DNA of 64,000 nt. Origin: Escherichia coli. GTDB taxonomy: Bacteria > Pseudomonadota > Gammaproteobacteria > Enterobacterales > Enterobacteriaceae. Positions 51,542 through 51,659 of this stretch are shown here, in pieces (position 1 is the first letter of the stretch; the number at the start of each line of letters is the position of its first letter). The notes below the pieces were generated by a model. It did not search any database and was not told the DNA's origin. It saw only the letters and a program-made list of their open reading frames with translations. A program made the position numbers and the translations under genes. The DNA is taken from the NCBI RefSeq assembly GCF_003334765.1, contig NZ_QOWT01000012.1; one strand, 5' to 3'.

Positions 51542-51548
51542 CCAAGCA

Positions 51549-51575
51549 AGGGAGCGAAAGCTCCCTTTCACATTG
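51549..51575 (+). terminator. Probable intrinsic terminator after lptG
   Basis: GGGAGCGAAAGCTCCC hairpin followed by TTTCA, immediately after the lptG stop. Confidence 0.55.
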
Positions 51576-51659
51576 TTGATAAAGTCAAATACGAGTTCGA
51601 TCGGTCCCCTCGCCCCTTTGGGGAGAGGGTTAGGGTGAGGGGGACAGATCGCGCCTGAC

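Follow-up and report, generated by a model that had tools for sequence, protein, structure and literature searches.

On the evidence of its letters, the G-rich palindrome CCCCTCGCCCCTTTGGGGAGAGGGTTAGGGTGAGGGG (51606–51642, 37 nt), which lies downstream of the lptG hairpin in the spacer between lptG and yjgR, is a copy of the BoxC repeat, subtype 'A mm'. It is an already known and ordinary element, whose family has also been described as PIT, TMECO and HPG1. All positions refer to the window, the whole stretch of 64,000 nucleotides of E. coli DNA that was analyzed. We consider it very likely that this BoxC copy is structure-prone, probably selectively near-neutral, and without a dedicated regulatory role. 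This judgement combines a near-certain identity with a less certain neutrality, which we infer as the default reading. An earlier note on this DNA had described an inverted-repeat unit at 51545–51645, after the lptG hairpin and between the convergent lptG and yjgR genes, and the palindrome is indeed found inside that interval, which also takes in the hairpin itself (51548–51567).

The palindrome is a BoxC element of subtype A mm

We assigned the element to BoxC because a 36-mer within it is identical to the published 'TMECO type A mm'. The letters at 51607–51642 agree one for one with TMECO nos. 7, 11, and 15 in Table 1 of Holder et al. 2015 (PMC4666352), and we confirmed the identical core in K-12 DNA at fepB-entC, ygfF-gcvP, and frlR-yhfS. 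The suggestion of the earlier note that the unit belongs to another small repeat family is therefore borne out by a core identical to 3 of the 23 tabulated K-12 copies. The TMECO consensus, 5'-CCCTCNCCC N3-6 GGGNGAGGG N3 GGGNGAGGG[G/T/C/-]-3' (PMC4666352), is matched exactly at 51607–51642, and the subtype is given by the TTA of loop 2 (51630-32) together with the G in the C block, CCCTCGCCC. Furthermore, the unit is longer than the core, as in BoxC, with flanks (CAAATACGAGTTCGATCGGTC and GGACAG) that fit a profile of 15 copies, and the element is intergenic, belonging to a family that is dispersed and multicopy in E. coli.

Kaplan et al. 2016 (PMC5100583) reported the same family as HPG1: 13 K-12 members share the consensus GGGAGAGGGTTAGGGTGAGGG without variation, have a conserved C-rich stretch on the 5' side, and are placed near 3' ends between operons. 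The window element carries this 21-mer exactly at 51621–51641, likewise with a C-rich 5' flank and in an intergenic, 3'-proximal position; HPG1 is thus the same family under another name, and its regulatory 'switch' is a proposal made in PMC5100583. An independent survey of stem-loop repeats in E. coli (PMC2267715) also has an entry for BoxC, giving 22 as found, 32 as known from the literature, and 56 bp as the length, and the ~62-nt unit of the window agrees with this literature length. Descriptions of the family go back to the 1990s (Bergler 1992 and Bachellier 1990s, cited in PMC4666352), and it was described anew in 2000 (Hoyne et al.), 2015, and 2016. Compared with BoxC/TMECO type A mm, the window copy is the same in its 36-nt core, flanks, intergenic position, TTA loop, and the G of the C block, and we found no difference in the element itself. 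What is new in comparison with K-12 is the locus, as lptG-yjgR is absent from the 23 MG1655 copies. These results settle the annotation of 51586–51647 as BoxC (TMECO type A) and otherwise have little consequence for the window.

Architecture and boundaries of the element

To define the family boundaries, 14 K-12 loci were retrieved and 15 type-A copies, the window copy included, were anchored on the core. Conservation across the 15 copies extended from about -21 to +6 relative to the core. The unit is therefore ~62 nt long (51586–51647), or spans 51577–51647 when the outer extension is included (TGATAAAGTC upstream in the window copy); a sequence like that at 51577–51585 is found equally far from the core in the ygfF-gcvP, alx-sstT, fimH-gntP, fepB-entC, and yihR-yihS copies. 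The whole forms an imperfect inverted repeat in which the C block at 51607–51615 is able to pair with either G block 1 or G block 2 (Table 1).

Table 1. Features of the lptG-yjgR spacer and its surroundings in the window
Feature	Position	Strand	Basis or remark
lptG CDS	50456..51541	+	3' end, stop TAA 51539-51541; ORF and RefSeq name on 100% identical DNA
Hairpin AAGGGAGC-GAAA-GCTCCCTT	51548..51567	+	Perfect 8-bp arms, 4-nt loop; outside the repeat unit
Outer 5' extension TGATAAAGT	51577..51585	+	Common to a subset of BoxC type-A copies, subset consensus TGATGACAAAGTC
Conserved 5' flank CAAATACGAGTTCGATCGGTC	51586..51606	+	Family consensus cAAaaacG.gc.CG.aCgGTC, anchored profile of 15 type-A copies
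C block CCCTCGCCC	51607..51615	+	'mm' variant, G at variable position; pattern from PMC4666352
Loop 1 CTTTG	51616..51620	+	5 nt
G block 1 GGGAGAGGG	51621..51629	+	Core alignment, pattern match
Loop 2 TTA	51630..51632	+	Defines type A (PMC4666352)
G block 2 GGGTGAGGG	51633..51641	+	Core alignment, pattern match
Conserved 3' flank GGACAG	51642..51647	+	Family consensus GAAcAg, 15-copy profile
Longest local inverted repeat CGATCGGTCCCCTCGCCC with GGGTGAGGGGGACAGATCG	51598..51651	.	Arms 51598-51609 / 51640-51651; G block 1 in the loop
yjgR CDS	51660..53162	-	Stop TAA 51662-51660; ORF; annotated length 1503 nt, RefSeq name
tRNA-Leu(CAA) gene	54507-54591		

The element is beyond chance. No match to the 23-mer of the G-rich part was expected in shuffles of the window, even with up to 3 mismatches, and the looser three-block pattern was expected 0.03 times by chance. 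The 64-kb window holds a single BoxC copy.

Two haplotypes of the lptG-yjgR spacer

The region 50400–53300 of the window is 100% identical to many complete E. coli genomes, in which RefSeq names the genes lptF, lptG, yjgR, and ahr. Convergent lptG (+) and yjgR (-) enclose a spacer of 118 nt (51542–51659). The hairpin at 51548–51567, unchanged in all six aligned alleles, is the probable terminator stem of lptG and might act in both directions. The earlier note had taken it for a terminator. The hairpin itself is present, but a terminator consensus scan (51400–51800) did not call it in the window allele because the T-run that follows is interrupted (TTTCACATTGTT); in most other alleles of a six-strain alignment this run reads TTTATTATTGTT. 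No site was returned by a promoter and terminator scan of both strands of 51400–51800, Rfam covariance models gave 0 matches in 49000–54000 at a permissive threshold (E up to 1), and RefSeq annotation places no feature over the BoxC element.

The REP consensus (…CGYCTTATCMGGCCTAC) had 0 matches in 51542–51659 against 14 elsewhere in the window, in keeping with the remark in the earlier note that the unit is unlike REP. Six of the 14 matches form a BIME-like cluster in alternating orientation (47299–47540), and the others occur as pairs or singles at 5167, 14147–14231, 20388–20471, 23663–23710, and 33627. REP/BIME elements resemble BoxC in being short, GC-rich, extragenic, hairpin-forming, multicopy, and frequent at 3' ends. 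Their consensus, however, is unrelated, and the three-block architecture is that of BoxC. The two families also differ in abundance, with ~20 BoxC copies per genome versus far more REPs: 485 PU-BIME (PMC2267715), or about 4,000 by RepRanger (PMC12306157). The RepRanger paper of 2025 makes no mention of BoxC, triplex, or G4 (PMC12306157).

The other allele of the lptG-yjgR spacer has a REP where the window has BoxC. In K-12 MG1655 the spacer is 160 nt long (locus L001, 3402–3561) and shares the hairpin; the sequence beyond it is unrelated and contains a REP but no BoxC. The six-strain alignment resolved two haplotypes that differ by replacement of ~75 nt (BoxC allele) versus ~115 nt (REP allele). 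Common to both are the hairpin, the TTGTT..CAAAGT after it, and GACA[G/A]ATC.CGCCTGACTTA before yjgR, whereas the REP allele also has TGAACGAAT ahead of the hairpin and the complementary TTCGTTCAT behind it, both of which are missing from the BoxC allele. Counted by coverage, the window-type BoxC allele was present in 1809 genomes (33%) and the K-12-type REP allele in 3610 (67%), together 5419 of 5426; this count assigned the other 7 to neither haplotype. K-12, O157:H7, ST131, and an ST2747 strain, which we take to be a cryptic-clade strain, all have the REP allele, a slight indication that BoxC is derived or imported at lptG-yjgR. Such a near-perfect two-haplotype spacer offers a handy natural pair for testing the effect of BoxC at a gene 3' end.

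Possible roles in RNA at gene 3' ends

The BoxC unit ends 12 nt from the yjgR stop, so its C-rich strand falls in the yjgR 3' region. If transcribed, this strand would form a stable stem-loop there, and transcription would get to the G-rich strand only by reading through the lptG hairpin. According to PMC3738161, the BIME and boxC elements of E. coli are transcribed. The main rival to near-neutrality, possible though on balance unlikely, is that BoxC is a functional RNA 3'-end element: a stem-loop from yjgR (C-rich) or from lptG read-through (G-rich) that, like REP, would block 3' exonucleases or aid termination. This rival is compatible with BoxC membership, and would make the BoxC and REP alleles interchangeable solutions. 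It draws on the RNA of the whole spacer, whose predicted folding on either strand is far stronger than that of shuffles (z = -3.75 and -3.97), and on the reported location of the family near 3' UTRs and between operons (PMC5100583).

Of 11 single type-A copies inspected, seven are flanked by convergent genes, two follow a gene in its sense direction, and the remaining two (pstA-pstB and yihS-yihR) are antisense copies inside operons. The 7 of 11 convergent copies, together with the REP at the same place in the other haplotype, would fit a role in 3'-end RNA. A bias towards convergent spacers is, however, also expected from simple promoter avoidance, and the pstA-pstB and yihS-yihR copies of K-12, inside operons and in opposite orientation, speak against such a role. 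Moreover, the BoxC stem of the window is followed by ACAGATCG on the plus strand and by GAACTCG on the minus strand, neither of which is the T-run of an intrinsic terminator, and the scan found no terminator-like site. Finally, Hoyne and Maher, as far as their work is related in PMC4666352, detected neither promoter nor terminator activity, and saw RNA polymerase unaffected.

Among the type-A copies of K-12 is one in the ycjD-fabI spacer, upstream of fabI (locus L132, 806–841). This is presumably the locus at which 'box C' was first named, by Bergler in 1992.

Folding and non-B DNA structures

We also considered the structures that the element could adopt. The folding z-score against shuffles was -2.6 for a 60-nt segment modelled as DNA. 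The minimum free energy fold of the 37-mer alone is the proximal hairpin, in which the C block pairs with G block 1 (-8.9 kcal/mol as DNA), whereas in the centroid of the 37-mer and in the fold of the flanked 60-mer the C block pairs with G block 2 instead. The minimum free energy of the 60-mer was -14.4 kcal/mol as DNA and -30.1 as RNA. The four G runs of the element fit the canonical G-quadruplex pattern, and the ViennaRNA G4 model gave -12.6 kcal/mol for the G-rich part alone. Once the C block was included, the hairpin (-22 to -30 kcal/mol) beat the G4 (-12.6) in the RNA model.

These folds show that, in a single strand, either G block can serve as the partner of the C block, which gives two alternative hairpins. 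The spare G block could then lie in the groove of the hairpin and form an intrastrand purine-motif triplex of the kind published in vitro; without the C block, the G-rich part might fold into a G-quadruplex. A type A mm oligonucleotide did form a very stable intrastrand purine-motif triplex by CD, NMR, and melting (Tm about 74 C, 18 imino signals), and addition of the complementary strand restored the duplex (PMC4666352). Depending on the cation, the family folds as G4 or hairpin, with G4 or hairpin in K+ (PMC5100583). In the chromosomal duplex, by contrast, the element is expected to be ordinary B-DNA, and any non-B form would be transient, arising in replication or transcription. The main measurable effect of the element would then be local sequence turnover, of which the BoxC/REP dimorphism might be one instance among the intergenic turnover already reported.

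We regard it as improbable that a DNA triplex or G-quadruplex acts in vivo as a switch or fork barrier and drives rearrangement of its neighbourhood as adaptive variation. TMECO loci are more variable between strains than controls (PMC4666352), and PIT elements block DNA polymerase in vitro, though the account of that work in PMC4666352 adds that an in vivo effect on replication was not found. The locus of the window is itself dimorphic, with an indel of the idn operon 1.5 kb away, and the canonical G4 pattern and its modelled energy also count in favour. Against this stand the return to duplex upon addition of the complementary strand, DMS footprinting in vivo, which revealed no triplex (PMC4666352), and the preference for the hairpin over the G4 once the C block is present. 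The occurrence of just two haplotypes in 5419 of 5426 genomes is likewise unlike an active hotspot of instability, and the idn indel is unlinked to the BoxC allele.

Concerning that indel, the idnR-idnT-idnO-idnD-idnK cluster, which in K-12 lies between yjgR and ahr, is absent from the window, where ahr (yjgB, 53163–54353) follows directly after yjgR. Linkage of the BoxC allele to the idn-operon deletion was tried and rejected, as all four combinations occur (window; K-12; MMC-J-0085; ST131 and PapM-32-1).

Copy number and mobility in E. coli

The genome-wide search proposed in the earlier note showed that the sequence is anything but unique: with a 60-nt query, copies were found in all 5426 complete E. 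coli genomes, at a median of 17 places per genome (range 1–33). Only 41 of 85,159 places were on plasmids; nearly all BoxC copies are therefore chromosomal. In NZ_CP022686.1 (labelled Nissle 1917) and NZ_CP031256.1 the total is as low as 3 BoxC places. Over 2.9 kb at lptG-yjgR, both genomes nonetheless match the window at 100%, as do genomes with 27–28 places. Identity over 2.9 kb across genomes that differ so much in their number of BoxC places suggests recombinational transfer between lineages.

A multicopy, dispersed, discrete unit with conserved flanks, whose copy number ranges from 1 to 33 across strains, could in principle be a non-autonomous mobile element (MITE-like or REP/RAYT-like) that is served by a dedicated enzyme, with the window copy as a recent insertion. 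The presence of the exact motif in unrelated phyla and on plasmids would also fit. We nevertheless judge this reading very doubtful. Neither a clean filled versus empty site nor a target-site duplication, which along with terminal inverted repeats would mark a MITE, was visible between the alleles in the six-strain alignment, which differ by replacement. We know of no RAYT-type transposase for BoxC. Most E. coli TMECO copies sit at fixed orthologous loci (PMC4666352), and matches were confined to 3 of 50,697 phage records (two from Campylobacter phages and one that is a fragment of 2.5 kb). The two Campylobacter records, MG065686.1 and MG065691.1, each match the E. coli BoxC unit at 89.5% in two places; BoxC is unexpected for this host, and contamination or chimeric assembly could explain it.

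BoxC-like motifs beyond E. coli

To look outside E. coli, species genomes were scanned with a pattern in which three positions were left free; the scan supplied examples from four genomes rather than a taxonomic distribution. Among the matches listed, the three-block motif occurred at least 13 times in a Methylomirabilota MAG, at least 3 times in a Contendobacter MAG, and at least 5 times in an unclassified MAG, and the loci retrieved from Mitsuaria chitosanitabida held at least 145 copies. One of these occurrences of the exact motif is at locus L014, 1921–2039. In these bacteria, and on rhizobial and Klebsiella plasmids, CCCTC(T/G)CCC, GGGAGAGGG, and GGGTGAGGG are identical to E. coli BoxC, with the same order and spacing, whereas the loops and flanks are lineage-specific, and the E. 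coli flanks CGGTC / GAACAG are absent. Among the matches listed, block 1 read GGGAGAGGG in 165 of 166 copies, block 2 read GGGTGAGGG in all non-Mitsuaria copies and in 117 of 145 Mitsuaria copies, and the free pattern positions were fixed (A in block 1, T in block 2). That 9-nt blocks are identical in very distant bacteria, with free N positions fixed, counts against neutrality and argues for some sequence-specific constraint.

In Mitsuaria the motif often occurs as inverted pairs 50–230 nt apart with a conserved 3' tail, TCTTCGGGC (e.g. locus L079, 9543–14160). Inspection of the intervals between inverted copies at L079 and L069 revealed no transposase or RAYT-like gene, a further point against mobility by a dedicated enzyme; the genes found there are ordinary ones and encode a LysR regulator, a methylmalonate-semialdehyde dehydrogenase, a GGDEF protein, and a TonB-dependent receptor. 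In the Mitsuaria copies, the variable base of the C block showed no supporting covariation with G block 2 (Fisher p = 0.056, the trend being opposite to that expected of the long-range hairpin), and the flanks showed no complementarity. The extended outer stem would therefore be specific to E. coli or to the lptG-yjgR locus.

BoxC-like sequences also turned up in 508 plasmid records, for the most part from Klebsiella, Rhizobium, Sinorhizobium, Azospirillum, and Aeromonas, although several E. coli "plasmid" records among the 508 are chromosome-sized. A wide spread was already known, since Holder et al. counted 3610 occurrences of the motif across 262 proteobacterial genomes, with triplex motifs frequent in certain cyanobacteria (PMC4666352); the Methylomirabilota copies are thus a minor extension. 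They, the very high number of copies in Mitsuaria, and the two-haplotype spacer in 5426 genomes are small additions to published work.

The invariance of three 9-nt blocks in Gammaproteobacteria (E. coli and the Contendobacter MAG), in the betaproteobacterium Mitsuaria, and in Methylomirabilota, together with BoxC-like sequences on plasmids of alphaproteobacterial genera, could be taken to mean that the blocks form a cross-phylum functional module kept by a factor specific for their sequence or structure (a mobilising enzyme, for example, or a protein that binds nucleic acids), with BoxC and REP interchangeable at 3' ends. We view this as a long shot. If true, the dimorphism at lptG-yjgR would show two unrelated structured repeats serving interchangeably at gene 3' ends. 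As for a chance palindrome, a diverged REP, or a spacer-specific small gene (peptide or sRNA), for which one might cite a mechanical 60-aa ORF (51524–51706, minus strand) that overlaps the spacer, practically no room is left by thousands of near-identical E. coli copies and the lack of a REP match, an Rfam match, or a RefSeq feature.

A last observation concerns the far end of the window. The tRNA-Leu(CAA) gene (Table 1) is presumably leuX, judging by its position after ahr, and a site-specific integrase is annotated somewhere within 40000–64000 in matching genomes. Together, the tRNA gene and the integrase suggest that the final 9 kb of the window contain an island associated with the tRNA.
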